Shown piece after piece: positions 4,674 to 58,150 of a stretch of DNA of 64,000 bases. Numbering within the stretch: the stretch's first letter is position 1; each line of letters starts with the position of its first letter. The notes beneath the pieces are model-generated. The model was not told the DNA's origin. It did not search any database and saw nothing but the letters and a program-made list of their open reading frames with translations. The stretch is from positions 36,582,001-36,646,000 of the forward strand of contig NC_086108.1 of NCBI RefSeq assembly GCF_963921235.1. Reading direction: 5' to 3'. A program made the translations under genes and the position numbers. The DNA is from Mobula hypostoma (taxonomy: Eukaryota).

Positions 4674-6088
4674 TTGAATTGAATTGACTTTATTTCTTAC
4701 ATCCTTCACATACATGAGGGGTAAAAATCTTTATGTTACGTCTCTGTCTAAATGTGCAATGTGCAATCATAGTAATTTATAATAAATAGAACAGTCAATG
4801 TAACATGGAAATACACTTATATTAACGTGAGTTAATCGGTGTGAAGGCCTGATGGAAGAAGCTGTCCTGGAGCCTGTTGGTCCTGGCTCTTATGCTGCGG
4901 TACTGTTTCCTGGATGGTAGCAGCTGGAATAGATGTGGTTGGGGTGACTCGGGTCCCCAATGATCTTTTGGCCCTTTTTACACACCTGTCCTTGTAAATA
5001 TCGTGAGTCATGGGAAATTCACAGCTACAGATGAACTGGTCTGTCTGCACCACTCTCTGCAGAATCCTGCGATTAAGTTCCCATACCAGGCAGAGATGCA
5101 GCCAGTCAGGATGCTCTCAATTGTGCCCTTGTACAAAGTTCTTAGGATCTGGGGGCCCATACCAAACTTCCTCAACCGTCAGAGGTGAAAGAGGCGCTGT
5201 TGTGTCTTTTTCACCACACAGTGTACAGACCATGTGAGGTCCTTGGTGATGTGGATGCCGAGGAACTGAAAGCTGTTTAACCTCTCAACCCCAGATCCAT
5301 CCATTGATGTCAATAGGGGTTAGCCCATCTTCATTCCTCCTGTAATCCATAATCCTTTGTTTTTGTGACATTGAGGGAGAGGTTGTTTTCTTGACACCAC
5401 TGTGTCAAAGAGATGACTTCTTCCCTGTGGACCACCTTGTTATTGTTTGAGATAAGGCCAATCAATGTAGAGTCACTGGCAAATTTATTAGCAGATTGGA
5501 GCTGTGAGTGACGATACAGTCATGGGTATACAGGGAGTAAAGGAGGGGACTTAGTACACAGCCCTGAGGGGCTCCTGTGTTGAGAGTCAGAGGGGTGGAG
5601 GTGAGGGAGCCCACTCTTATCACCTGCCAATGATCTGACAGGAAGTCCAGGTTCCAGGTGCATAAGGCAGGCTCAAGGCCGAGGTCTCTGAGCTTCCTGT
5701 TGAGCCTGGATGGAATTATGATGATGAATGCTGAACTGTAGTCCAAGAACAGCATTCTTACATAAGCATCCTTCTCCGGATGTGTAAGGACAGTATGTAG
5801 AGCAGTGACTATTGCATCGTCTGTTGATCGGTTGTGTCGGGAAGGTGAACTGTAGGGGGTCCAGTGTGGGTGGTAGCATGCTGCAGATGTAATCCTTGAC
5901 CAGCCTCTCAAAGCATTTGCTTATTATTGAGGTGATTGTGACAGGACACCAGTCGTTCAGGCATGTTACCTTGGTCTTTTTTGGTACAGGGGCAATGGTG
6001 GGTGATGTAAAGCAGAAGGGCACTCTCCACTGGGAGAGGGAGAGATTAAAAATGTCTGTGAATACACCTGCCAGTTGGGCTGTGCAGG
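4674..6088 (-). mobile_element. Rex1/Babar-clade LINE, 5'-truncated and decayed
   Basis: Minus-strand ORFs read [33 protein letters not shown] and [36 protein letters not shown]. (AATTC)n tail at ~4674-4685. Confidence 0.85.
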
Positions 6089-6509
6089 AATACAAGTGTT
6101 CGGAGAGGTGGATAAGGAAAAGTTAAGGAGGCAGGAATGGGAATCATTAAAGGAGAAGGGAAGAGATGAATGACAGGTGGAACCAGGTTGGGGGGGGTGG
6201 GATTTGTGCGTGAAGTGGGTAGATCGAAACAGAAAGGGGGCAAAGATGGGTGAAAAATGCTACAAAGCAGGGAGGGCTGGAGGATCAGAATGAGCGTGGG
6301 GGAGGGGAGGGGAGGATAAAAGTAAAAAGGGTGCAGGATTTACCTAAAATTGAAAAACTCGACTTCCGGGGTCGAGTATGGAGTGAGTTGGTGCGTGTGA
6401 GTGTGGCTCCCCATTTGTATTGAAAATCTACCTGTTTATCTTTGCCGTATGCTCGAGATAACTGGATACTTACCATTGTGAACAACGCGGGACATAGCTG
6501 GACATTGAA

Positions 6510-7410
6510 ATGGCAAGTAGAATGTACCTTCGAAGTAAAACTGGGGAAAAAGATAGTGAAGCCTCGAGCAAGAAGGCGGATGTTACAGTAATGTCGCCGT
6601 TGCACGCTGCTGGAGCTGGTCCTGGACCTGCGCTACCCGATGACTTGGAGAGGCTTCGTTTAGTACTTATTACTGACATGACGCAAGCGGTGCATTCTGC
6701 CCTAAAAAGAGAACTTGAAGATGCTTTATCACCAGTGAATGCTACCATGGAACAAATTATGTCTGCTTACGAGTCACACGACAAACGCATTCGTGGGGTT
6801 GAAGACGGCCTGAATGATTACAGTGACCGACTGGTGAGCGTCGAAGCCGCCATTGCAGAGCGAAAACGCAGTTCTGAAGGGAAAGCTAGATGACCTCGAA
6901 AATCGGTCACGGAGATCCAATTTGAGAGTGGCCGGCATTCCTGAAAATTTGGAAGGTTCGGACCCTGTTAAATTTATGACCGAGTTTTTTGACGAAGTGC
7001 TGGGGGCAGATTTTTTCCCAAGTCCTCTCGTACTTTCGCGTGCTCACCGAGTCGGACGTAAACCATCCGGTGTCTCTGGAGCCAAGCGAACGAGACCAAG
7101 AACGTTCCTGGTTTGCTTTCACTCCTTTCAAGATAAACAACGCATCATCAACAGACGGAAGCAGGAGCTGTATTTCCGCGGACACCGCGTGTTTTTTTAT
7201 GAAGATTTTAGTGCGGAGCTGGGTAAAAAACGAGCAGCTTTCAAGGAGGTGAAATCCCTGCTTTACGGGAAAGGGGTCAGGTTTGGCCTCTTGTATCCTG
7301 CCCAGTTCCGCGTCATGCATGAAGGTAAAAAGCATTATTTCCATACACCAGAGGCGGCCAAAGAGTTTCACCATTCGCGCTGGGGAGAAGAAGAACGAGA
7401 AGAGCAATGA
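6510..7410 (+). pseudogene. L1 ORF1p (coiled coil plus RRM/CTD), one frameshift near 6852
   Basis: Coiled-coil segment followed by LENRSRRSNLRVAGIPE...RAHRV...FYEDFS...LYPA, motifs typical of vertebrate L1 ORF1. Confidence 0.9.
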
Positions 7411-8014
7411 CTTTTTTTTAGGTTATTCGTGCAACATTGAAGGGGCCTCATGCCGAAGCAAACTGTTAATTTTCACAATCCACTTCTTTGTTCATTTTTT
7501 CCAGTTTAATTTGTGGAACGCGATCGGGTCGAACTGCTATGCTGCCGAAACTGATTAACAAAAACTTTCAACCAGCAAAATGTAAATATTTGGGATTTAT
7601 GTCTCGGGTGTTTAAGTTGCCCAGTGTGTTTTGTTTTGTTTTTAATGCTTAGCTTGACCTGTGTTATCTTTAGCCTATATGTTATATTAAAGGTAGTATA
7701 AGTGATAGGATAAATGTTGAGGGGAGCCACCCTGGATTAGATTGAAAGTTGGGTTGTATGGGGGACGCCTTGGAAGTTTTTTGTTGGGTACTGCCTGCGA
7801 TCATCCTCAATTGGGGAGGCAGATCTAGGCTTCGGGGGTTAATTGGGTTTTTTTGTTTGTGTAAAGAGGTGGGGGGAGTGTTTTGGGGGATTACCATGGC
7901 AGTTTATTCTTTTGTGTGTTACAGATTGATCAGACTTTCTTTTCATTGTGCGTTATTGTGTGCAATTTATACCCTCGCACTGTTTTGGATTGTAGGCCCT
8001 GTGTGTCTTTTGAT

Positions 8015-11000
8015 ATGGTTAACATGAGTGCAGCTGATGGAGGCCACCCTGTGAGGTTTATTTCTTGGAATGTAAAGGGGCTCAATGGTCCGGTTAAAAG
8101 AGCTAAAGTTTTCTCTCATCTGAAACAATTAAAAGCTGATATACTATTTCTACAAGAGACACATTTAAGAGTGGAGGACCATAATAGACTTCGTATAGCA
8201 TGGATTAGTCAGGTTTTTCATTCCAGATTTAATAGTAGGTCCAGGGGGGGTGGCAATATTAATCACCAAAAGAATGCAGTTCACACCATCTGATGTAATC
8301 AGTGACCCTAATGGTCGCTTTATTATAGTCTCTGGCTCTCTCTTTCAGATACCTGTTATTTTGGTAAATGTTTATGCTCCTAATTGGGACGATGTCCAAT
8401 TTGCAAATAGGGTTTTGTCATTAATACCTAACCTGAATACACATAAGCTAATCTTTTCCGGAGATTTGAACTGTGCTATTGACCCACTGCTTGATAGGTC
8501 TTGCCCTAGGGGAACATTTTCTGGTATGGCAAAGGCCTTCTCGATGTTTATGCGACAAAATGGTTATATGGATCCTTGGAGATTTTTGAATCCATCAGTT
8601 AGGCAATTCTCTTTCTTCTCTCATGTTCACCACTCCTATTCCAGGCTAGACTATTTCTTTATAGATAATTCCTTGATACCTATGATTAGACAAATTGAAT
8701 ACACTGCTATAGTTATATCTGATCACTCGCCTGTGAAACTGGACCTATGTTTTCCTTTAAACGTTAGAGAACGGCCTCTGTGGAGACTTAACCCCCTTTT
8801 GCTTTCTAATGAGAAATTTGTGGTTATATATCGGCTAACATTGACACATTCTTCGAGACTAACAAAACTGAGTCGGTATCCTACTGTTTACTTTGGGAAA
8901 CTTTAAAAGCTTACTTGAGGGGTCAAATAATATCTTGTACTTCACATGCCAATAAAGAGCGTAGGAAGGAAATGCAAGTGTTATTGAAATCTATTTGGGA
9001 CCTGGATAGAAAATACTCTGAGGCACCCACTGCGGAATTATATAAAAGCCGGGTTGATTTGCAAGCGAAGTTTAATCTTCCATCTACAAACCTATCAGAA
9101 CAATTAATTCTTAAGACACGTGGCCTCTATTATGAATATGGTGACAAGGCGAGCCGGCTTATGGCTCATCAGTTGAAACGTCAAGCTGCATCACGACTTA
9201 TTCCCCAGGTAAGAGACATGCACCAGAACTTGACAAGCAATCCAAAAGAGATTAATAACATCTTTGCAACTTTTTATTCCTCTCTGTATGCCTCAGAGTT
9301 CCCCTCAGATAAAACAAATATGGAATGTTTTTTAGATAATTTGGAAATACCAACTCTTGAACCAGAGGAAGTGGAGAACCTAGATCGGGCTCTTGGGCAG
9401 GAAGAGATTAATAATGCCATTATGGCTATGCAGAGTGGTAAGTCCCCAGGTCCTGATGGTTATCCAATAGAATTTTATAAGAAATTTAAGGATAAGCTCA
9501 CACCGGTCCTTCTAGAAGTGTTTCAGGAATCTTTGGAGAATGGCTCCTTACCCCCTTCTCTTTCACAGGCAGCTATTTCACTACTTCTTAAAAAGGACAA
9601 GGACCCGACTCAATGTGGATCATATCGCCTCATTTCACTTTTGAATGTAGATGTGAAAATTCTGGCTAAAGTGCTTGCATGTGGTTTAGAACATCCCCTT
9701 CCCAAGATAATTTCAGATGATCAAACAGGTTTTATTAAAAATCGCTATTCTTTTTTTAATATCCGTCGACTGGCTGATGTGGTTTATTCACTGAGTGATT
9801 CTCCAAGTCCAGAGGTTGTTATCGCCTTGGACGCGGAGAAGGCATTTGATAGAGTGGAATGGGTATACTTATTTAGTGTTTTGGAGAAATTTGTATTTGG
9901 CAGAATATTTATAGCTTGGGTTAAGCTATTATACCACTCGCCTTCAGCGTGTATACAGACAAAGTATTTTCGATCTGGCTATTTCCCATTAAAACGTGGC
10001 ACTCGCCAAGGCTGCCCACTGTCCCCTCTTCTTTTTGCAATTGCAATTGAGCCTCTTTCTATTGCAATTAAGTCAACTACATTATTTCAAGGTGTTATAA
10101 GAGGGGACATGGAACACCGTGTTTCCCTATATGCTGATGACCTCTTACTTTATGTTAGCGACCCTATAGGTAGTAGTCCTGCTATTGTGTCATTATTAGG
10201 TCAATTTGGAGCCTTCTCTGGCTATAAACTGAACTTTCAAAAAAGCAAATGCTTTCCCATTAATAACTTGGCCCTACAGATCCGACAGGAATCCTTGCCC
10301 TTTCCTTTATCTCAAGATGGTTTTGTATACCTAGGAATACATATTACTCGCTCTTTTACATCTCTGTTTGAAGCTAACTACAGACCTCAGGTTAGCCAAA
10401 TGAAGGCTGATTTCGAGAGATGGCGCAGTTTACCCCTTACTATAGCTGGGAGAATTCAGTCAGTGAAAATGACTATACTTCCTAGATTTCTCTATTTGTT
10501 TCAGTGTTTGCCAGTTTTCTTATCTAAGTTATTTTTTAAATCAGTTGATCAAGCTATAACCTCCTTTATTTGGGAAAATAAGGTCCCAAGGGTTAATAAG
10601 CGCATTCTTCAAAGAGGTCATGACATAGGTGGAATGGGTCTTCCCAGCTTTATTCATTATTACTGGGCATCGAACATTCAAAAAGTATTATTTTGGCTTC
10701 ACCGGCCAGATATAATCTGGTGCCTGCTTGAGTCACGATCTTGCCACTCCTCGTCTCTCCCAGCTTTGGTGTATTCTTCCTTACCATTGAAATCCTCTCA
10801 ATTCACATCTAACCCGGTCGTGCTCTCTACCCTCAAAATTTTTAATCAATTTCGCTGCCACTATAAGTTCATATCAGCTTCAGTTTTGGGCCCCATTCAT
10901 AAAAACCATTTATTTCCTCCCTCCACATTCGATTCAGCTTTTAGACAATGGGGTTTGAAAGGTCTTATGCGCATTAAGGATTTGTATACTGATAACATAT

Positions 11001-47579: not shown

Positions 47580-48533
47580 CATTCAAGTGGCCTTAACCTT
47601 GTCATGGTTTGGAGACTTGCATGCCTCAAGGACTCAAAGAGCTATGCTAGGCCTTTGGCTCTTGGTAGGGTCACCCATGCCAAACAAGTCAAAAGGTAGA
47701 GGCCAGGCTAAGGGTGATCCACCAGTCCTCCAGGTTCAGGGATTCAGCTCAGGGCTAACAACCCTAAAACTTCTATAGGGGTACTGTGAAAAGCATTCTG
47801 GCAGGCTGAATCAATGTCTTGTATGGGGCGGGGGAGCTACTGCACAGGACTGAAAGAAGCTGCAGAAGGTCGTAAATTTAGTGGGATCCATCTTGGGTAC
47901 TAGCCTAAAAAGTATCCAGGGCATCCTCAAGGAACGGTGTCTCAGAAAGGCAGCGTCCATTATTAAGGACCTCCAGCACCCAGGGCATGCCCTTTTCTCA
48001 CTGTTACCATAGGGTAGGAGGTACAGAAGCCTGAAGGCACAAACTCAGAAATTCAGCATCAGCTTCTTCCTCTCTGCCACCTGATTCCTAAATAGACATT
48101 GAACCCATGAACACTACCTCATTTTTAAAATATATATTATCTCTGCTTTTGCACAATTTTTAATTTATTCAATATTTGTATACTGTAATTGATTGACTTC
48201 TCTTCTATATTATGTATTGCATTGAACTGCTGCTGCTAGGTTAACAAATTTCACGACACATGCCAGGGATAATAAACCTGATTCTGATTCTGACTGGTCA
48301 AAAAGGACTGTTACAGAAACAGAAATGAAGGATCCTTCGACTTCTGTATTCCCAAGGCTCCACTTGGACCTGCATAACTGGCAGTAGTGAAAACTGAGAG
48401 GAAGCCATTGGCAAATGAAGGAAACCTTGATCATTGCCAAGACCAAGACCAAAATTGGCCAAAGACAGACAAAGTTGGAGGAACATCACTGCTGCCCTAA
48501 ATGCCAGCAGGCATAGCAGGCTGTAAGTAAGTA
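47580..48533 (+). mobile_element. Second copy of the bipartite RTE-derived element, split by a Rex/Babar fragment
   Basis: 12-bp TSD with 2 mismatches, AGGCCTGAGCAT (47568-47579) and AGGCTAGAGCAT (48534-48545). 3' end reads AKDRQSWRNITAALNASRHSRL* then (TAAG)3. Homologous to 3854-4201. Confidence 0.75.
47766..48292 (+). mobile_element. Rex1/Babar 3' fragment
   Basis: DNA for FYRGTVKSIL..KAASIIKD..HPGHALFSLLP.GRRYRSL. AATAAAC(CTGATT)n tail. Confidence 0.8.
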
Positions 48534-50241
48534 AGGCTAGAGCATGCTTCAAAATATCATTCCTAGTCAAGTCAGTATTTATATACTGATTGGCGTCATG
48601 ATCCATCTGTTCTGCATACTGCTGGCAGTCCTAAGGTATGTGTGCTAACCCCTTTACAAATAAGCCATCTGGCAGACTTCCTGTTCGAAGTATGTGCTTG
48701 CTCCCAACTCTAACATAATTAGCAATGGAAAAGAAAAGTAAAACTGGGAAGCTGAACCTGCTCCATAAAGTACTGATGAAATATAGATTCAGTATTCTAT
48801 TCACAAATATATTCAAGCCCATATCCCTTTCCCTTCCCCATTCCACGTTGATCAGCCATACCACCCTTCCTCCTTCTGTCCTGCTCCAAACTAAATGGGA
48901 CTAAGTTCATGTATAGACCTAAATGTAGACCTTTTAAAATTTTAAAATAATTTATTTCATCCTTTCCTAATTAAAATTGGACAGTATATAGAATAAGGAA
49001 CTGGTAGGCGAGGCACCATGATGTTCCAATGGGCCATGCAGAATAGTTAATAACTGAAAACTGAAATTACAACTGTTATTTTTATTCCCACACCAGTGAG
49101 GTGGTCTGATTTTGCAACTCCACTGAACAGCAAATTAATGATTCCCTCTCTTTTGTGGACTTTTCCAGCACTGGATTGGAATCTGAGACTAAATAGTTGA
49201 TTGTGAGATGCAGACTGACTTGCCATGCCTTCTGAAACTCAAAGATAAGAAGGAAATTAGTGCATTTAATTACTCACCTACAAACTTTGGATGCATTTTT
49301 AGCAGCAGATCACTGGTGGTCTGAAAGAGGCACATGGCTCTTCTGCAGTTCACTGTCAAGGTAACACGTGGATATGTGATAATATTTCATAGTCCCTCAA
49401 TCTGCATGTGGCTTTGGTGGCAATACTGATTGTCCTGGACTCCAGTACATCACTATGGTTTGAAGCATAATGCAGCTGTTAAAAGATACTAATCTACAGA
49501 TTTGTGATCGAGGGTAATTAGCATGGTTACAGTGTCAAACCTGAATCAATCATTAATTTTCTACATTTATTCTGTAATTGTGAAGTAGCACAACAGGAAT
49601 TGTCTTCGGCAGTTCCTTAGGACTGAGGTCAATTTGCTTCCACTTCAATTCTGTTGGACCTGAGTTTGCTCAGTGTGAAAGGGAGAATAATTCTACAACT
49701 GTCTGAAACCCTGCAGCATCTGACAGTCTTGTGATTTCTATCTCAGAGGCCGACGTCAGAAAATCTTTCAAGAGGGGGAACCCTTGCAAGGCATCAGACC
49801 CTGCTGGCGTACCTGGCAGGGTGCTGAAAACCTGTGCCAGTGAATTGGCTGGAGTGTTCAAGGACATCTTGAACTTCTGATTGCTATAGATGGAGATTCC
49901 CACCTGCTTCAAAAGAGCATCCAATCATACCGGTGTCTAAGAAGAGCAGTGTGAGCTGCCTCAAGGACTATTGTCTGGTAGTACTCACACCTACCGTGAT
50001 GAAGTGCTTTGACAGGTTGGTCATGGCTAGAACTAACTCAGGCCTGAGCAATTTGCCTATCTGCACAACAGATCTACAGTGGGTACAGTCTCGCTGACTC
50101 TCCACTGAGCCTTGGACAACTTGGACAACAGCAATGCCTATGTCCGGCTACTGTTAACTGACTACAGCTCAGCATTCAACACCATCATTCCCTCAGTGCT
50201 TATCATCAAGTTTCAAAACCTGGGCCTCTGTACTTCCACCT

Positions 50242-50743
50242 TGTATGAAATCAGGTTCATGGGTTTGGTGAGCGGGGATAGAAACACCTACTGCTGGTAA
50301 GTAAGTTAAATATTTATTTACAGGACATGACAGACACTAAAATATTTAGTAAACAAATTAAGTTACACCCAGTTACAAATACTTAACTGAAGTATGTGCT
50401 AGGGCCCTCTCTCACTGCAGCACCCCTCCACTGTTCCCATGGCACTAGTCATGCCCAGTCCGTTGGTGACCCAAAGAGCAAAAGAGAGACTGGTTGCTTT
50501 CAACACGCTGGATGCCTACTCCACCAGCCATGACATCATCAGCTGGTGCCCTGATGCCAAATGGCAGCCAGTCTAAGGGATGCAGTGATCCTTAAATGGG
50601 CCATTCACTAGCTAATATGGGGAAGTGGCTTTCAATGAACAGGTAAGATTGATTCTTACTGCAACAACCTACCTCTCGAAAGACGCACCGCCGTGATACT
50701 CGGTCCACAGGCTGTATAACCCCTGCCGATGCCCCACTATACA
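50242..50743 (-). repeat. ERV 3' LTR (502 bp)
   Basis: Terminal inverted repeat TGTAT...ATACA. Minus-strand AATAAA at 50313-50318 and a TATA-like ATTTAA near 50595. Abuts the interrupted Rex element. Confidence 0.7.
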
Positions 50744-50978
50744 GTTGTGCATTTAGTACTTCAGTAGTATCTGAATAATATTGTAAATACATTGATTGAT
50801 TAAGCATTCTGTTTGTTTAAATAGTTCATTATGGGCTATATGTAAAAATAAGTGAATTGGATATGTCATAATGCTACCACATGATATGGGCATGCCTCGC
50901 TTAAAGTAAACACAAAGTTAGACTCGCATTTCAGACTCCCGAGTCTTTCTTCCAATTAGTTTTATGTTTTGGAGTTAC
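50744..50978 (+). mobile_element. Unrelated AT-rich LTR-like repeat inserted between env and the ERV LTR
   Basis: Abrupt switch to AT-rich sequence that cuts env inside its TM helix and occupies the expected polypurine-tract position. Confidence 0.5.
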
Positions 50979-51940
50979 CCAGAATTATCAGCCCACCTAT
51001 TGCTACCCAGTGCGCTACAGTAGTCCACCAACCTCCCAATGCCCCTACAGACCACCAACCTCCTCCAGGGTATAGTAGTTTTGGAGCTGGTCCCTTACTT
51101 TCCTGATCTTATCATCACCAGATGTGTAATGTTCGCAGACTTGCCAAGATGTGGGTGCAGCATCTCTGACCAATCATGGCACAGGCTCCACATTTCTCTG
51201 TGAGCAGGTAATCCAAGGCCATCCAGAAAGCCATCATCTCAGCTGACACTCTGGTCAGTACCTCTGTATGATAGTGAGCTGCGGTCATCTGGTTGGCCAG
51301 CACTTCCATCACGGAGCGCATGCATATCCGTTCACGGGATAGCCTGGCCTCACCATACAGGAAATGGCTATCATCCAGAAGCTTTCTGCCTCTGTGATAC
51401 ACTACTTCCTGCGCTGACTCTTAATGGGCAAGGTGCTCATCCAGGGAATGCCCACCTTCACAGCACCGTTTGGCGCCAACACGGGCATCCCAGGATATTG
51501 CTCACACTCACTGTGGCCCATTGACTGATTGAACCAGCGCTCATCATACCACCTGTATCAACACTGCTTCTCCTTCCCTATAGGTAGAGGGATTATGCTC
51601 AGACTCCGGACCTTGGGAAACCATAGGGGAAGTATCACCTACTGAGCCTCAAGTTCTTTAAGGCCATTCCTATACAACAGGACGAGATTGGCTTGAATGG
51701 ACTACTCCCTCATGGCCTCCCCCCCCGGAGAAGCTGGACAAGTTCCTCCAACCATTCTGTTCTTCTTTGTCAAAGGCGATCAGTATCAGCGGCACCCCTT
51801 CCCAGTGTGGGTTGGCAGATCCAAAAGTCCAAGGAGTAGGTGTGCTTCATATACTTGTACTCCATCCATGGGAATGTGCTGCAGGATCTCACATCGACCA
51901 CTATCATCACCACTGCCGTCAGCATGCGCCACTTTGTCAT
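50979..51940 (-). pseudogene. Retroviral env (gamma-type), decayed and internally deleted
   Basis: Signal-like MTKWRMLTAVVMIVVDVRSC; DFWIC (CWxC-like); QRRK* furin-site remnant; fusion-peptide-like ITEAESFWMIAI; ISD MALDYLLTEKCG; CAMIGQRCC (CX6CC); GWW..GGWW..WVAIGGLIIL TM. Confidence 0.85.
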
Positions 51941-51982
51941 TTTGTAATGTAGGGAGACGCACGCTCATTCCCTTCTGGTTAA

Positions 51983-54900
51983 TCACTGGGTATTTAGACA
52001 GACTATCCCCTGTCTCCCCAGTAACAGCACCCACTGCACATTCAAAGGTACAGGCACCATGATCTCTCCCTGCTCTGGTGGCTGCTGTGGGTGCTGCACC
52101 CAAACCTTCCCTGATTCCTCCTCCAACTTCACCTCTTCCACCTTTGGAGGGTCCGACACTGCCGAGCGCTGGGACATCGGGGACGCTCCCGGGCCGGCTG
52201 CCTGGGAACTCAGATTGTCCACTGCCTGCTGCAGCACACTCAGCCACCCCTGAAAGGAGTGGGGTGGGGGTCAATAACTTGCTGTTTTAACAGTACGTTC
52301 AAATGGTTGATCAACCCTGCCACCTGTAGATAATATGGCATCTGGAACACCCACAAAATGCTGGAATTCTCAGCCCATTCCTTGACTTTGGCCCCTGCAA
52401 AATGTGAGCCATTGTCTGACTGAATCCCCCAGGGGACCTCATGCATGGATGACGTGTGCCGCAAATCTCTCCTGGTCAGTATGGCTGCAGAGCACCACCA
52501 CCAGGACCTCGGAATATGTGTCCGTCATTGTCAGCCCTTATCGTTTATTGTTCTGTGGCAGCAGCAGCCCTACATGACCAAATTACCATACCTGCAAGCC
52601 CCCCGTGTCCCTTCGGATACATCCTGAGGGACCACTGGCCATGCCCTGGGCCTAACTGTTGGCCACCTCTTGGGATTAACCTGCTGGCAGGTAGGGCAGC
52701 CCATAGCCGTCGTACTGGCCTCATCTACATCAACGGAGCTGTAGTGGAGCATGTATCAAGCTTCAAATTCCTTGGTGTCCACATTTCCGAGGATCTCACT
52801 TCGTCCCTGAACTCCTCCATCCTGATCAAAAAGGTGCAACAGCGCCTTTATTTCCTGCGGAGCATCAAGAAAGCTCACCTCTGTCCCAGGATACTGACAG
52901 ACTTTTACCGCTGTACCATTGAGAGCATACTCACCAACTGCATCTCAGTGTGGTATGGCAATTGTCCCGTATCGGACTGCAAAGCACTCCAGCGTGTGGT
53001 GAAAACTGCCCAGCGGATTATCAGCACCCAATTGCCCACCATTGAGAACATCTACCATAAACGCTGCCTGGGCAGGGTGAAAAGCATTATCAGGGATGCA
53101 TCTCACCCTAACCATGGACTTTTTACTCTCCTCCCATCCGGTAGGCGATACAGGAGCCTCCGCTCCCACACCAGCAGGCACAGGAAGAGCTTCTTCCCTG
53201 AGGCTGTGACACTGCTCAACCTCACATCACAGTGCTAAGCAGTATTGCACCCATATTGTACTGTCTCAGTAGTTTTATCTTTGTGTGCTGTAGCACTTAC
53301 TTTTTATTCACAGTTATTTTGTAAATAAGACTATTCTTTGCATTTCTGGTCAGATACTAACAGCATTTCCTTGGCTTTGTATCTGTACTTGGCACAATGA
53401 CAATAAAGTTGAAGCTAATCTAATCTAATCTATTCAAATATCAACGTAACCCCTCGAGCTTCTGCCCATTTCCTTGCTCCTTGTCCCCAGATGTCTGCTC
53501 TTCTGACGTGCCCACACTGTCAGGCACTCATGGTCTTCCTCCTTGGAAAACACTATGGCAGTCATAATCTATGCTGCATGATCAACAGCAGTGCTGTGTA
53601 TGGCCTCCTCATTCCCCGGAGGGGTGTGGGGAACTACATGCTGGACTGTGCTTAGGTGTCGATGTGTATCTTCCCAATAGGGGGCGTCGCTCATGCACCT
53701 CCCAATTCTGTCCATGCCAATAATGCATGCACACCGCCATGCCGTTAGGCACTGTCCAAGAGTTGGTCTAGATCCTTACAGGCCACGTTGCCCCATGGAG
53801 GGGCAGGTTTGCAGCTACCCGCTCTGCCCATTGGCTAGATCCACCTGGGTAACCACCCTCCCTGTCGCAGAGTGGTGAGCAGCAGCCTTCCACTACTATT
53901 TACCACTCCGCCGAGGGCTGGAGCTGTCGGTAAGCCAGACTTGCTCTCCTGCTCAGCAGTCAGCTCAGCCTAGCGTTCACCCCACTGCATGGTGAGGGGT
54001 CAATGATGGGATTCTCATCGGGGGTCATTATCAGAGAGAGGCGTGACCTGCTGTGGAAGCGGCTCACCCCAGTGGGATCCTTCTCTGTCACTTCCACTTG
54101 ACAATGGAAGACAGCTTGGCATGGCTCTCTCTGTGGGTTACATGGTCAGACTTTACCAACTGCATGAAAGGGAATTGTGGTCACAGCATAAATGACCCAG
54201 AGGCAGTCTGATGTTATGTGGCTCAGTAGCAAGCCAACAGTTGCCTCTCAAAGGTGGTGTGTCATATTGCTACCTCTGGAAGGGATTTTAAGCAAAGTCT
54301 TTGCATCAGCTCCCACAGGCTCCACTCATCCACCCTGGGAGCAGCTGAGACCTGCAGCTCGGATGGCACCTCGCTCTGTCTAGGGCCCAAGGGGGAGGGA
54401 CTGAACTATCACCTGCCTGGCGGTTTCAAAGGCCGTCTGCTGCTCGGGACCCCATTGGAAGGTGGTCTTTTTCTGGGAGACCTGGTACAGGGGAAGCAGC
54501 ATCATCGTCAGCCAGTACCCCAGCAGCCCCACAAACTGCTGCATCTCCTCTTTGGTGTTGGGGGCTGCGGCACTTAAGATCTCGCGCTGCCCAGAATGCC
54601 ATCGTATGCTGTGGAATGTGACGTTGTGGCTGTATCTTATCAGGGTTGATGAACCAGCCCCGTTCCCTGCAGAGAGGTGACTATCTTATCCAGGGTCTAC
54701 CTCACTGCCTTCTGCGAGGGTCCTTGTAGCAGCAAGCTGTTGATGTAGTGGATACAGAGGCGGGTAGGGCCCCCTGCAGGTCTCAGGCAATCATGCCATA
54801 GCACGAGGAGGGACCGTGGTCGTATCCGTGCGGGGGGCAGCAAAATGTGCACTGTTTATCCTCCCAGGCAACAGTGAACTGGTCCTGTTACTCCAAACTC

Positions 54901-55560
54901 ATGGGGTAGAGAAGAAGACATTGGCCAGGTCTGCTGCTGCACGCCAATGCTTCCCCTCCCTACACTACATCCGGGACAGCTGCTGTGAAGGGCGGTGCAT
55001 CCCTGTTTGACGGTCAATAGTTGATGTTTATGTCCCAGCTGCCATCCTGCTTCCACACGGGCTAATCAGGTCTATTGCAGGAGAGGGATGCAGGATAGAT
55101 GACCCCCTCCCACACCAGGGCCTTCACAGCCTCCCTGACGTCTCTGGTGCCTCCTGGGATCTTGTTCGGCTTAATGTTAACAACCTTGGTTGGGGTGTGG
55201 GGGAGGATGCAGAATCATCAAAGTCTCCCACTTGGCCAAGCACTCTGGTACCTTGACCCATGCCACCCTGAGGGTAAAACACCCTCTCCTGTCTGCAGGG
55301 AGCTACCCCTTGCCACATTCATGCCCAGAATGCACTCAAGGGAGGCTGCCACCAAGACAGTCATGAGTCCAGAGGCTGGGGGGTGGGCGGGGAGCTGAGC
55401 CCCAGAACTCCTCTATAGTAGCCCTGGGATCCCGGCAGCTATTGAGGTCACCCAGAATGATGGTGTGCTTGGCATCGGTGTCCACCAGTGCCATCCATCT
55501 CTGCACAGTCTCATGGTACTGCAATAGGTACGTAAGGCCTTGGGTCCCCTGGCTAGGAAA
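51983..55560 (-). pseudogene. Retroviral pro-pol (protease, RT, RNase H, integrase), many stops and frameshifts
   Basis: LVDTDAKHTIILGD (~55480); DLANVFFS..QDQFTVAWEDKQCTF (~54850-54930); HYINSLLL (~54740); WLTDSS..WKAAAHH (~53900); CPTCQQ; IQSDNGSHF..VKEWA..WVFQMPYYLQVAGLINHLNVLLK; GKVWV..GEI. Confidence 0.85.
52714..53432 (+). mobile_element. Young Rex1/Babar 3' fragment inserted in the ERV integrase
   Basis: Open frame LIYINGAVVEHVSSFKFLGVHISEDL..LPSGRRYRS..SFFPEAVTLLN*. AATAAA and (CTAAT)n tail. Confidence 0.9.
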
Positions 55561-55790
55561 GGGTGCCAATCTTATTCACCGGGAGCACTGACCCCATCCC
55601 TACATGGGTGGGATGAGAGGGTGCCACCACTGCCCAACCCCTGCTACTGCTGAAGGTCCACCAGTGGCTTTTCCAGAACCTCCAGAGATGGATCTAGGGA
55701 ACCCTGAGAGAATGTGAGGAATCCTGTGGAGAACGGAAAGACCCTTTATTATGGTAGGGCTTGGAGAATGACCTTTCTCCTTAACAGTCT

Positions 55791-56735
55791 CCTTGCCTCT
55801 TTTCCCTCAGCACTGCTCCCTCCACATGGCATAGAGAGGCTTATCTACCTGGTCCCTGGTGCCCCCTGCTCTGAACAATGCCAAAAATATTTTCTTACAG
55901 GTCATATCTTGCATCGGCTCCACTGCTCAGGCAGTGGTTGATTGCTGAGTTGATGTCTGCTTTTGAGGAGAGAATGTTGTCAAGGTGTGGAAAGATGTCT
56001 ACGTTTTCAAGGGCAATATCATTAACTTTATGGAGGGCCCACTGCTCTACTCTCTGTACACTCATGATGGTGTGGCTAGGCACAACTCCAGTGCCATTTA
56101 TAAGTTCACCAATGACACAACTGTTGGCAATCTCAGAAGGTGACAAGGATGTACAGGAGTGAGATACTGTCGTTCGGCTGGTTGCGTGGCTTTGTGATAG
56201 CAACCTTGCACTCAAAGTAAGACCAAGGAATTGATTGTGGACTTCAGGAAGAGGAAATCTGGAGAACACACAGCCGACCTCGCCGAGGAGTCAGCAGTGG
56301 AAAGGATGAATGGCTTCAAGTTCCTGGATGTCACCATCTTAGAGGAACTATCCTGGTCCAACATATTGATGAAATCACGAAGGAAGTATGCAACCGCTGT
56401 ACTTCGTTAGGAGTTTGAGAAGATTTGGTATGTTATCAAAGACTCTAGAAAATTTCTATAGATGTATCGTAGAGGCCATTCTGGCATGAAGGCTCCAACA
56501 CCCTTGAAAATGTAGACACCTTTCCACATCTTGGCAACGTTCTCTCCTCAAAAGCAGACATCGACTCAGCGATCAACCACAGCCTGAGTAGTGGAGCCTA
56601 TGCAAGATATGACATGTAAGAAAATATTTTTGGCATTGCTCAGAGCAGGGGTTGCCAGGGAGCAGGTAGATAAGCTTCCCACTCCCACCCTCTATGTCAT
56701 GTGGAGGGGGCACTGCTGAGGGAAACGAGGCAAGG
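55791..56735. repeat. Inverted duplication: 55791-56013 versus 56501-56735
   Basis: The two ~230-bp segments are reverse complements with scattered mismatches and one ~11-nt indel. Confidence 0.9.
55915..56035 (-). mobile_element. RTE-clade RT fragment at the ERV deletion breakpoint
   Basis: Minus strand reads KVNDIALENVDIFPHLDNILSSKADINSAINHCL, matching RTE LENV..F.YLGS.LS..ADID.EI..R. Confidence 0.65.
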
Positions 56736-58150
56736 TTTGCAGACTCAGCCATCTCCATCATGTGCATCATCGAGGACATCTTCAAAAGGCGATGCCTCAG
56801 GAAAGTGGCGTTAATTATTCAGAATTCTCACCATCCAGGAGATGCCCTCTGGGAAGAGGTACAGGAGCCTGAACACACACTCTGCATTTTAGGAAAAGCT
56901 TCTTCCCCTATGCCAACAGCTTTCTGAACAGCCTAGGGATGTTACCTCACTGTTTTGCTCTCTGTTTGCACTATCTATTTATTTTATATTTCTTACCCTA
57001 ATTTATAGCAATTTTTTAATGCCTTGCACTATACCACTGCCAAAAAAACAACAGATTTCATGACATATGTCAGTGATAATTAACTTGATCCTGATTCTGA
57101 CAAGGTTAATGTAGAGTCAGCATGCTCTGCCACATGGCACAGGAGAAACCCTACATGGTCATCTGATGGGTGCTTGGGGAGATGGTGTATCTGTTCACCG
57201 TTTACATTATGATCTCATGTGCTTCGGCTGTGTAGGCTCAGGATTCTCAGCGCCACCCACAGCTCCTCAATCAACTTTAATGTTCACGGGCCAGGGGTTC
57301 TCAGGGGTCAGTGGGGATGGTGCATCTTTTCAAGTTGTTGAGAACATCTGTGGGGGGATATTTTCCTCTGTCCATTGGTAATGTCCAGTGGAAGGAATCG
57401 AGTACTTGTTTTGGAAACTAAAACGATGCAGCTTCCCCAAGAGAACGGTGTCAGTAGGGCCCCAATGCTGGTGATGTTGACCTGGAATGAGATGCTGATG
57501 TTGGTTCAATTATGTTTTGTGGTGGATTTGAAGCTTCATGAGCGCAGCATTTGCTATTTCTCTCCAGTGTCTTGAGCACCCTTAATATACAGAAAAGAAA
57601 AGGAATTTCATGAGCAAAGTGAAACACATCCACGTATGGAGATATTGATGCTTCAAACAAACGGGTCAAAGGGATAGTTTTCAAGGAGCATCCAGAAGCA
57701 GCAATAAGTTTGGAGAGGTTGAAGAGGAGGAATTCTGGGATCTAGCAGATGAATAGGAGGAGAGCAGATCTCTTGTTTATACAGTTGGAGGATGATAAAG
57801 AGTATCACTAGAACACAATGAGAATTTAAACATTTTTGATATTGCTTAAGTGGGAACAAGAGTTTGCTAGAAAGTACAGAATGACTGGGGAAAGTGACAT
57901 GGCACTATTGAGGTATATAGCAAAGTTTTGAATTATTTTTGGTACATCAGTGACGTTTGCCTCCCCCTTCTCCACTAGCAGCATACTTTGAAAATCAAGA
58001 AAGATTTTGGATGCTGGCAATCTTAAGTAATAACAAAAATTGCGTAAAATATTCAGTAGGTTCGTTTGCATTTGTGGCAAGAGAAGCAGGGTTAATGTCG
58101 GAGGTCAAAGGTCCTTTCTTTTTATTTTAGACATCCTGAGAAGTTTAGTT

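Follow-up and report, generated by a model that had tools for sequence, protein, structure and literature searches.

The described system nearest to the element considered here is XtERV-S of frogs, an endogenous retrovirus (ERV) that joins an ERV-L-like gag-pol to an envelope whose surface subunit (SU), unrelated to known viruses, carries CWIC near its N-terminus and whose gamma-like transmembrane subunit (TM) has a CX6CC motif, and that has a serine primer-binding site (PMC8278194). The same source gives DYRxLN, YIDD, HX4HX28CX2C, a major homology region (MHR) and the lack of a Cys-His box as signatures of both ERV-L and XtERV-S, and not of foamy virus or murine leukaemia virus (its Table 2), and describes ERV-S as having env sequences and no identifiable dUTPase. 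In cartilaginous fishes, ERVs with env have been reported from the elephant shark, one lineage of which clusters with snakehead retrovirus (Han 2015, PMC4422223); class III ERVs and snakehead retrovirus have been placed in a clade, Huo, that spans all major vertebrate groups (Xu et al. 2018, PMC6001957); foamy-like ERVs of sharks cluster with an element of Xenopus tropicalis (Aiewsakun and Katzourakis 2017, PMC5512871); and a 2023 survey of 12 chondrichthyan genomes reported spuma-like and epsilon-like ERVs (PMC10699275). Here, we analyse a 64,000-nt stretch of the genome of the ray Mobula hypostoma (contig NC_086108.1, positions 36,582,001 to 36,646,000), hereafter the window, in which positions 50242-55904 very probably hold a dead, 5′-truncated provirus of an ERV-L-like (class III) clade shared with stingray, with a gamma-type env and no dUTPase, whose entry into the germ line likely lies of the order of 10^8 years back and which is expected to do nothing today.

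All coordinates are positions in the window, and the element lies on its minus strand. Read from 55904 down to 50242, it consists of the end of gag, protease (PR), reverse transcriptase (RT), RNase H, integrase (IN), env and one long terminal repeat (LTR), so the retroviral order gag-pro-pol-env is present on one strand from 55904 to 50977, gag being represented by its last ~40 codons only; in gene content the element corresponds to a simple retrovirus. The G+C content is 0.47-0.55 at 50-56 kb and 0.36-0.44 on both sides. An earlier note on this stretch had claimed minus-strand retroviral remnants in retroviral order at 50242-55905, in a probable cartilaginous fish. Every motif that it listed was found, in colinear order, and both borders are right, homology to other copies beginning at 55904 and the LTR ending at 50242; the host group that it named fits the sources of the nearest Pol and Env proteins, namely a stingray, a sawfish and sharks. 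The E values of the tblastn, Pol-profile and Env-profile searches exclude chance as the source of the retroviral homology. With retroviral Pols as tblastn queries, matches at E 1e-33 to 1e-42 run in order over PR-RT-RNase H-IN, and a profile built from 44 database Pols matches in seven colinear pieces, in three frames, from 55196 to 53681, the best at E 1e-21. The genome searched for related copies comprises 3.48 Gb; in what follows C-numbers label its other contigs, L-numbers sequences from this same genome, and P-numbers database proteins.

The gag remnant (55779-55904, minus strand) runs from KKIFLALFRAG (55864-55896) to QVDK, and the element is cut off at its outer edge, where DNA homology to the C1 copy begins (55904). 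The remnant is a genuine gag end, as had been claimed: it aligns with the C-terminus of Gag in the stingray Gag-Pol P0002 and with a gag frame of the ray's own genome (L017), the latter match (E 4e-5) falling on the arm of an inverted duplicate described below. The protease (55204-55575) matches P0002 and the X. tropicalis Pol P0023 by tblastn and retains LVDTDA (55471-55488) and IILGD (55447-55461), its active-site DTG having decayed to DTD; the protease of the relative L013 gives a Pfam RVP match of 25.7 bits. The RT (54374-55196) is preserved as five pieces in three frames, with profile matches down to the best E value given above, and keeps DLANVFFS (54908-54931), QDQFTVAWE (54861-54887), PPHGY (54822-54836) and HYINS (54736-54750), the last standing at the position of the catalytic box, in which YIDD has become YINS. 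The RT connection and RNase H (53681-54393; WLTDSSS and WKAAA within 53878-53937) are again matched as profile pieces (profile positions 308-507 at E 1e-15 and 511-566 at E 4e-9) across 15 in-frame stops. The end of RNase H and the start of integrase (53434-53680) are decayed and can be followed, over 53434-53630, by their DNA similarity to the C1 copy. Integrase itself (52097-52698, tblastn E 1e-15 to 1e-18) shows the zinc-finger CPTC (52687-52698), the core motif SDNGSHF (52399-52419), MPYYLQVAGLI (52309-52341) and the C-terminal GKVWV (52097-52111). Pfam is nearly blind on the window copy because the copy is too broken: of 21 single open reading frame (ORF) fragments one gave a match to rve, at 16.4 bits and below the cut-off, and the three frames translated with stops as X gave nothing relevant, all else from fragments and frames being chance matches such as TrbK.

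For the classification of pol, the seven pieces were laid into the profile columns with a gap at every break and stop, which placed 462 residues, and seven of 51 database proteins were excluded, either for insufficient coverage of the region or because they had been wrongly cut. Over these residues, RT-RNase H is 44.4% identical to the stingray Pol P0002, 42-45% to the own-genome frames L013, L014 and L007 (38% to L022, over 174 sites), 34-42% to dUTPase-bearing Pols, 35% to P0023, 19% to two class I Pols recognized by MLVIN_C, and 16-23% to 13 Ty3/Gypsy-like sequences. In a tree of 49 sequences and 552 columns (IQ-TREE, LG+G4, 1000 ultrafast bootstraps, UFBoot), the window sequence falls with L007, P0002, L013, L014 and L022, that is, with stingray and own-genome sequences, at UFBoot 99, and a split at UFBoot 100 separates class I and Gypsy-like sequences from all the rest. 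The class III call made in the earlier note is thus upheld, the element grouping with ERV-L-like Pols (34-44% identity) whose labels are their Pfam domains and species; the two groupings named there as counting against it, with Ty3/Gypsy elements and with epsilon- or gammaretroviruses, were not found. An exhaustive search in which the RT piece of the window, with stops as X, was scored against 1.84 billion representatives returned 132 hits, headed by a caecilian Pol with a post-integrase dUTPase (P0007, E 1.3e-25) and, second, a stingray protein; among the 17 hits of this piece that were scanned, none carried MLVIN_C. Scanning viral_contigs with the Pol alignment yielded no relative. Of the amphibian and fish Pols that were examined, three have the dUTPase after integrase, as in ERV-L, and no Pfam dUTPase is present in P0002 or P0023. 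Relatives carry the DYRRLN, YIDD and HX4HX28CX2C motifs and an MHR-like motif, and have no Cys-His box (P0002, with L017 for the gag traits), while the window keeps only decayed forms of these signatures (YINS, NINY.PSN and CPTC).

Downstream of integrase, the env gene is best preserved in its TM part (50977-51357, minus strand), which contains MALDYLL (51202-51222), a CX6CC motif reading CAMIGQRCC (51157-51183) and a membrane anchor (50977-51030). A profile of eight database Env proteins matches 51357-51148 at E 6.5e-17, and tblastn with elasmobranch Env proteins gives E 1e-7 to 3e-12. Weaker profile matches are colinear with it and cover the SU/TM junction, a mid-SU piece and the SU N-terminus: the junction (51363-51422, E 0.068) has a basic cluster, SQRRK (51405-51419), at the position of the furin site of relatives, and the SU remnant (51423-51904, E 0.023-1.1), which bears a ~300-bp deletion and FWIC at 51815-51829, is colinear at the DNA level with the C5, C62 and C1 copies. 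The CX6CC motif kept in the window reads CAVIGHECC in the C5 copy, and the immunosuppressive region in other genome copies reads LQNxMALDYLL. The TM ORF of the window matches no Pfam family at E<=1; a 219-aa TM ORF of a sister family (L043:8450-9106) scores 26.3 bits for TLV_coat against a cut-off of 22.5, and all eight database Env relatives carry PF00429 (TLV_coat), four of them elasmobranch (Hemitrygon akajei, Pristis pectinata, Heptranchias perlo and Scyliorhinus canicula) and one from a caecilian. The CX6CC, the membrane anchor and these elasmobranch TLV_coat relatives bear out the gamma type ascribed to env at the outset. The accompanying remark that no dUTPase is obvious also stands: stop-as-X frames contain no dUTPase domain match, tblastn with the dUTPase parts of P0003, P0007, P0012 and P0016 finds none in the element, and only ~190 bp lie between GKVWV (52097-52111) and the first env match (51904). 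Separately, full-length Env-like frames of 421-531 aa (P0053-P0058), related to the env of this family and with CWVC, a furin-type site and CX6CC, are annotated in stingray, sawfish and two sharks.

The element ends in a 3′ LTR of 425 bp (50242-50666, minus strand; TGTTGCAG...TTTCATACA, TG..CA), which matches other genome sequences at 70-77% identity among 40 scored. Its borders were set by a genome search that gave 399 first-look candidates, of which 41 non-self matches were scored: 19 of the 41 begin at the equivalent of 50662-50670 (query 73-81), and 26 end at 50246-50248 (query 495-497). The LTR had been drawn before as TGTAT..ATACA; its end at 50242 holds, and its start, put at the TGTAT at 50742, was probably 76 bp too far out and most likely lies at 50666. 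Adjoining the LTR upstream is a purine run, GAGAGGTAGG (50668-50677, minus strand), which from its position is likely the polypurine tract.

Whether pol and env belong to one element can be judged from other copies in the genome, and they do. A 1221-bp PR-RT probe has 63 genome matches, the best non-self match being 68% identical, and the close copies inspected are all decayed. Colinearity of the C5 copy with the window extends over the integrase end, env and the LTR, and the C62 copy comprises LTR, gag end, PR, RT, IN, env and LTR within 6.6 kb. At nine other loci, judged by eye, a pol match and a TM match share a strand, stand in the expected order and are separated by 2-4 kb. In both C62 and C12 the 425-bp LTR unit stands 5′ as well as 3′ of pol/env; only one LTR accompanies the window copy, which is therefore truncated and not a different kind of element. 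Of the fuller or intact proviruses that the earlier note proposed to look for, fuller ones, with both LTRs, were found in C62 and C12. A younger sister family, reached with a protein probe, retains frames of up to 454 aa (RT-RNase H) with Pfam RVT_1, RT_RNaseH_2 and RVP, and its C100 copy has gag, PR, RT, RNase H, IN end and env. The database protein nearest to the sister-family frame is from Hemitrygon akajei (56% identity), followed by amphibian, lungfish, caecilian, killifish and bird Pols at 44-53%, with class I MLVIN_C Pols reaching no more than 30%.

The LTR pairs of two related proviruses differ by Kimura two-parameter (K2P) distances of 0.31 (369 sites) and 0.30 (300 sites), and the distances between the window LTR and three others are 0.30-0.36. 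If t = d/2u is applied and 1e-9 per site per year is assumed as the rate, the age is probably about 150 million years, a figure meant only as an order of magnitude because the rate is assumed.

The decay of the window copy is extensive, with 22 in-frame stops and at least six frame changes in the seven pieces of RT-RNase H. No open frame of viral origin longer than ~100 codons is left in the element, and no present-day function is therefore predicted for it. No 5′ LTR was found anywhere in the window, either among direct repeats at 47-60 kb or by BLAST of the LTR against the whole window, where the only match beyond the LTR itself is one of 21 bp at 55885-55905 (E 1.2), attributable to chance. 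When the gag DNA from three copies, together with two gag proteins, served as query, no further gag came to light upstream in the window; the gag end and its inverted duplicate were recovered, and the other matches are LINE (long interspersed nuclear element) sequence common to both loci. The region of the PBS is deleted. Colinearity of 56037-56928 with the C5 locus was considered as ERV sequence and rejected, being LINE against LINE.

The gag-end/flank junction is present a second time as an inverted duplicate (56501-56735, plus strand), the arms 55791-56013 and 56501-56735 being 89-91% complementary; the gag-end motif recurs in it, and gag-end DNA of C1 and C62 matches 56610-56735. The arms lie 487 bp apart, and each comprises the last ~114 bp of the ERV gag and ~109 bp of non-viral flank. 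Since each arm holds both the gag end and the flank, what was copied in inverted orientation is the truncated junction itself. Compared with the C5 LINE copy, the second arm has the appearance of sequence inserted in a plus-strand LINE.

Two insertions interrupt the element. The 3′ part of a LINE, a non-LTR retrotransposon with an (AATCT)n-like tail, splits integrase at ~52714-53433 (plus strand, borders good to ~20 bp); it is recognized by a plus-strand ORF at 52453-53238 with a LINE-type C-terminus and by the homology to C1, which jumps from 53434 to 52735. The second is an interspersed, non-viral repeat of ~235 bp (50744-50978); in a genome search that gave 43 matches, 38 consist of this unit alone, at 80-85% identity, with 6346 first-look candidates, and the C5 copy runs through without it. 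Rfam gave no match at E<=0.1 over 49000-57500, and the repeat is not tied by that search to tRNA or another RNA family. The LINE at 52714 had been noted before and is confirmed; the second insertion, the 235-bp repeat, had been missed. Fragments of non-LTR retrotransposons are scattered around and within the ERV (47766-48293, 49707-50300, 52714-53433, 55967-56410 and 56738-57100), and at least 52714-53433 and 55967-56928 share a C-terminal region of the form FKFLGV...QRLYFLR....

We envisage the following history. A replication-competent retrovirus with a gag-pol-env set would have entered the germ line by integration and given rise to hundreds of copies. In the living virus, Env would have worked like other gamma-type Envs, with SU and TM cleaved by furin and joined by a disulfide between CXXC and CX6CC. 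The 5′ LTR and most of gag may then have been lost from the present copy in a rearrangement that also created the inverted duplicate of the new junction, and the truncated copy would have taken up the LINE tail and the short interspersed repeat before decaying to its present state.

Four other explanations for the locus were weighed. That the element is a foamy-like ERV (FLERV), related to spumaviruses and not to ERV-L/ERV-S, is unlikely. The idea draws on solved structures, in which the fingers/palm piece of the window RT has foamy PR-RT as its best hit (E 0.013) and the integrase of prototype foamy virus (PFV) is the best match of the stingray relative (83 bits), and on the clustering of shark FLERVs with an X. 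tropicalis element (PMC5512871), which may be the same lineage under another name. Foamy viruses, as described in PMC8278194, have YVDD, HX3HX29CX2C and no MHR, whereas the relatives of the window element have YIDD, HX4HX28CX2C and an MHR-like motif; moreover, the score of murine leukaemia virus (MLV) RT equals or exceeds that of foamy RT in a comparison that includes foamy viruses only through the PDB, the env is of the TLV_coat/gamma type with CX6CC, and the nearest database Pols have the post-integrase dUTPase typical of ERV-L. A class I ERV, epsilon- or gamma-like, is what the type of the envelope would suggest, and the RT thumb piece does match the RT of MLV and the related XMRV in the PDB (E 7e-5). 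Pol speaks otherwise: its identity to the two class I Pols is 19% as compared with 34-44% to ERV-L-like ones, with the UFBoot 100 split between them; tblastn with class I Pols gave one weak integrase match (P0031, E 3e-5) and nothing with P0033; and P0031 has YVDD and DLRAVN where the relatives have YIDD and DYRRLN. We regard a class I origin as very unlikely.

A composite is conceivable in which pol and env derive from two unrelated elements brought together by nested or neighbouring insertions, in a region that is a mosaic of LINE and short-repeat insertions with an inverted duplication. The order IN end-env-LTR is, however, colinear in the C5, C62, C1 and C12 copies, the nine other loci have pol and TM ordered on one strand, and the C100 copy of the sister family likewise runs gag-PR-RT-RNase H-IN end-env, all of which makes chance adjacency highly improbable even though pol and TM lie on opposite strands at one locus (C5:8288xxxx). 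It is scarcely credible, finally, that the element is no retrovirus at all and instead a Ty3/Gypsy LTR retrotransposon carrying an env-like gene. The Ty3 RT can be recognized as related to the family (64 bits), but identity to Gypsy-like sequences is confined to 16-23% across the UFBoot 100 split, the relatives have a retroviral RNase H (Pfam RNase_H) and RVP, and the Env is of gamma type.

Several observations weigh against reading the locus as an ERV-L-like provirus with a gamma-type env. The window copy itself falls below the Pfam thresholds for TLV_coat, RVT_1 and rve. In the tree, the branches of the window sequence and of L007 are long (~1 substitution per site), and the two pair with each other at UFBoot 62 only; the tree is built without foamy virus, snakehead retrovirus, HERV-L/S (human ERV-L and ERV-S) or walleye dermal sarcoma virus, with class I represented by two sequences and with no unambiguous class II. 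Because it contains no named viruses, placement within class III rests on database proteins labelled by dUTPase and by species. Solved structures score MLV and foamy RT about alike (110 versus 92 bits for L014, 152 versus 147 for P0002) and thus do not separate class I from class III here. In the envelope, the window has FWIC (FWVC in C5) in place of CXXC, with CW.C in all six Env relatives examined, and, compared with the Env profile, its immunosuppressive region keeps MALDYLL and lacks seven residues that cover the ALQN part. In addition to the opposite-strand locus, pol and TM are 10-13 kb apart at two loci. The age, too, depends on a neutral rate that is assumed and is drawn from copies other than that of the window, which has a single LTR.

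Some sequences met in these searches are of interest in their own right. Three sister-family copies, L015, L016 and L019 (on the small contigs C123, C162 and C140), contain the same tandem array of six to seven repeats of a ~27-aa unit that includes the RT catalytic box (PPNVGVHHYIDDVMLQGPDEEGVAEAL), and in each the array lies inside an open frame of 404-431 aa. On C68 (L045), a young element is inserted in a sister-family ERV; it has a 1000-aa open frame (6785-9784) between 857-bp terminal repeats, at 5877-6733 and 9960-10816, that are 99.8% identical. A database protein from outside the ray genome, P0079 (Logan contig, 7586 bp), is a 1374-aa retroviral-type Pol in which Pfam finds RVP, RVT_1, thymidylate kinase, RNase H, thymidine kinase and dUTPase, a domain for integrase not being found. 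A literature search judged by titles only met with no account of a Pol of this kind, and P0079 could be a faulty gene model.

Taken by itself, the locus is genomic debris, and its value is as a data point for the early history of retroviruses. Long ago, an elasmobranch came to contain hundreds of copies of a class III, ERV-L-like lineage that had a gamma-type envelope and lacked a dUTPase, and related Pol and Env frames are still annotated in the genomes of stingray, sawfish and shark. The locus bears on whether ERV-L lost env or viruses like XtERV-S gained one, and on how often the dUTPase has been gained or lost. We speculate, as a tentative possibility that we hold to be less probable than its negation, that the combination of an ERV-L-like gag-pol and a gamma-type Env of the covalently linked sort (CXXC close to the N-terminus of SU together with CX6CC) is an old state common to lineages of cartilaginous fishes and amphibians and not a recombinant specific to frogs, the env-less, dUTPase-bearing ERV-L of mammals then being the derived form. 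If true, few datable witnesses of that state would be older than the ray family, which numbers hundreds of copies and has LTR pairs ~30% diverged. For annotation there is a plain warning: a gamma-type env fragment in this genome need not mean a class I element.

Comparison with known systems places the provirus among described kinds. It is unlike mammalian ERV-L (HERV-L and MuERV-L) in that ERV-L has no env and has a dUTPase, although its relatives share with ERV-L the DYRxLN, YIDD and HX4HX28CX2C motifs and a gag with an MHR-like motif and no Cys-His box, and although its nearest database Pols have the post-integrase dUTPase; the comparison is one of ERV-L traits. ERV-S (HERV-S, or HERV18), compared by its description in PMC8278194, is like the ray element a class III ERV with env and without dUTPase, and differs in having mammalian hosts. 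With the elephant-shark elements, namely CmiERV lineage I, the CmiFLERVs and the members of Huo, again compared by published description, it shares a chondrichthyan host and the order pol then env, the host being a chimaera there and a batoid here. Its Env resembles gammaretroviral Env (TLV_coat, for instance that of MLV) in the CX6CC, the residual immunosuppressive region, the anchor and the basic SU/TM cluster, whereas the CXXC of MLV stands at residue 336 (PMC8278194, Table 2), that of the ray element's relatives stands near the SU N-terminus, and the window reads FWIC.

The likeness to XtERV-S extends to an ERV-L-like gag-pol combined with a class I-like TM with immunosuppressive region and CX6CC (PMC8278194), to CXXC near the SU N-terminus (CWVC at residues 46-51 in three of six elasmobranch Envs and 137-146 in the other three), and to relatives without a Cys-His box and with an MHR-like motif, YIDD and HX4HX28CX2C. 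The motif spacing of XtERV-S recurs, at a constant offset of 17 residues, in the X. tropicalis Pol P0023, which matches the window at E 1e-41 by tblastn. XtERV-S differs in having a post-integrase dUTPase region, found by modelling according to that paper, where the window element has none; in its identity of 35% over RT-RNase H, taking P0023 as its counterpart, and the different sub-clade of the tree in which P0023 falls; and in being intact and recent where the window copy, in a cartilaginous fish, is dead and old. The literature searched contains no ERV-L-like element with a gamma-type env described under those words in a ray or shark. The novelty claimed in the earlier note was overstated, the architecture of XtERV-S having been published (PMC8278194) and ERVs that cluster with snakehead retrovirus, as well as foamy-like ERVs, having been reported from the elephant shark (PMC4422223, PMC5512871). 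The safest statement, with published shark elements compared by description only, is that the element adds a member, in a new host group, to an already known kind: because an ERV-L-like pol with a gamma-type env has already been described in frogs, what the ray provirus provides is the extension of that kind to cartilaginous fishes.

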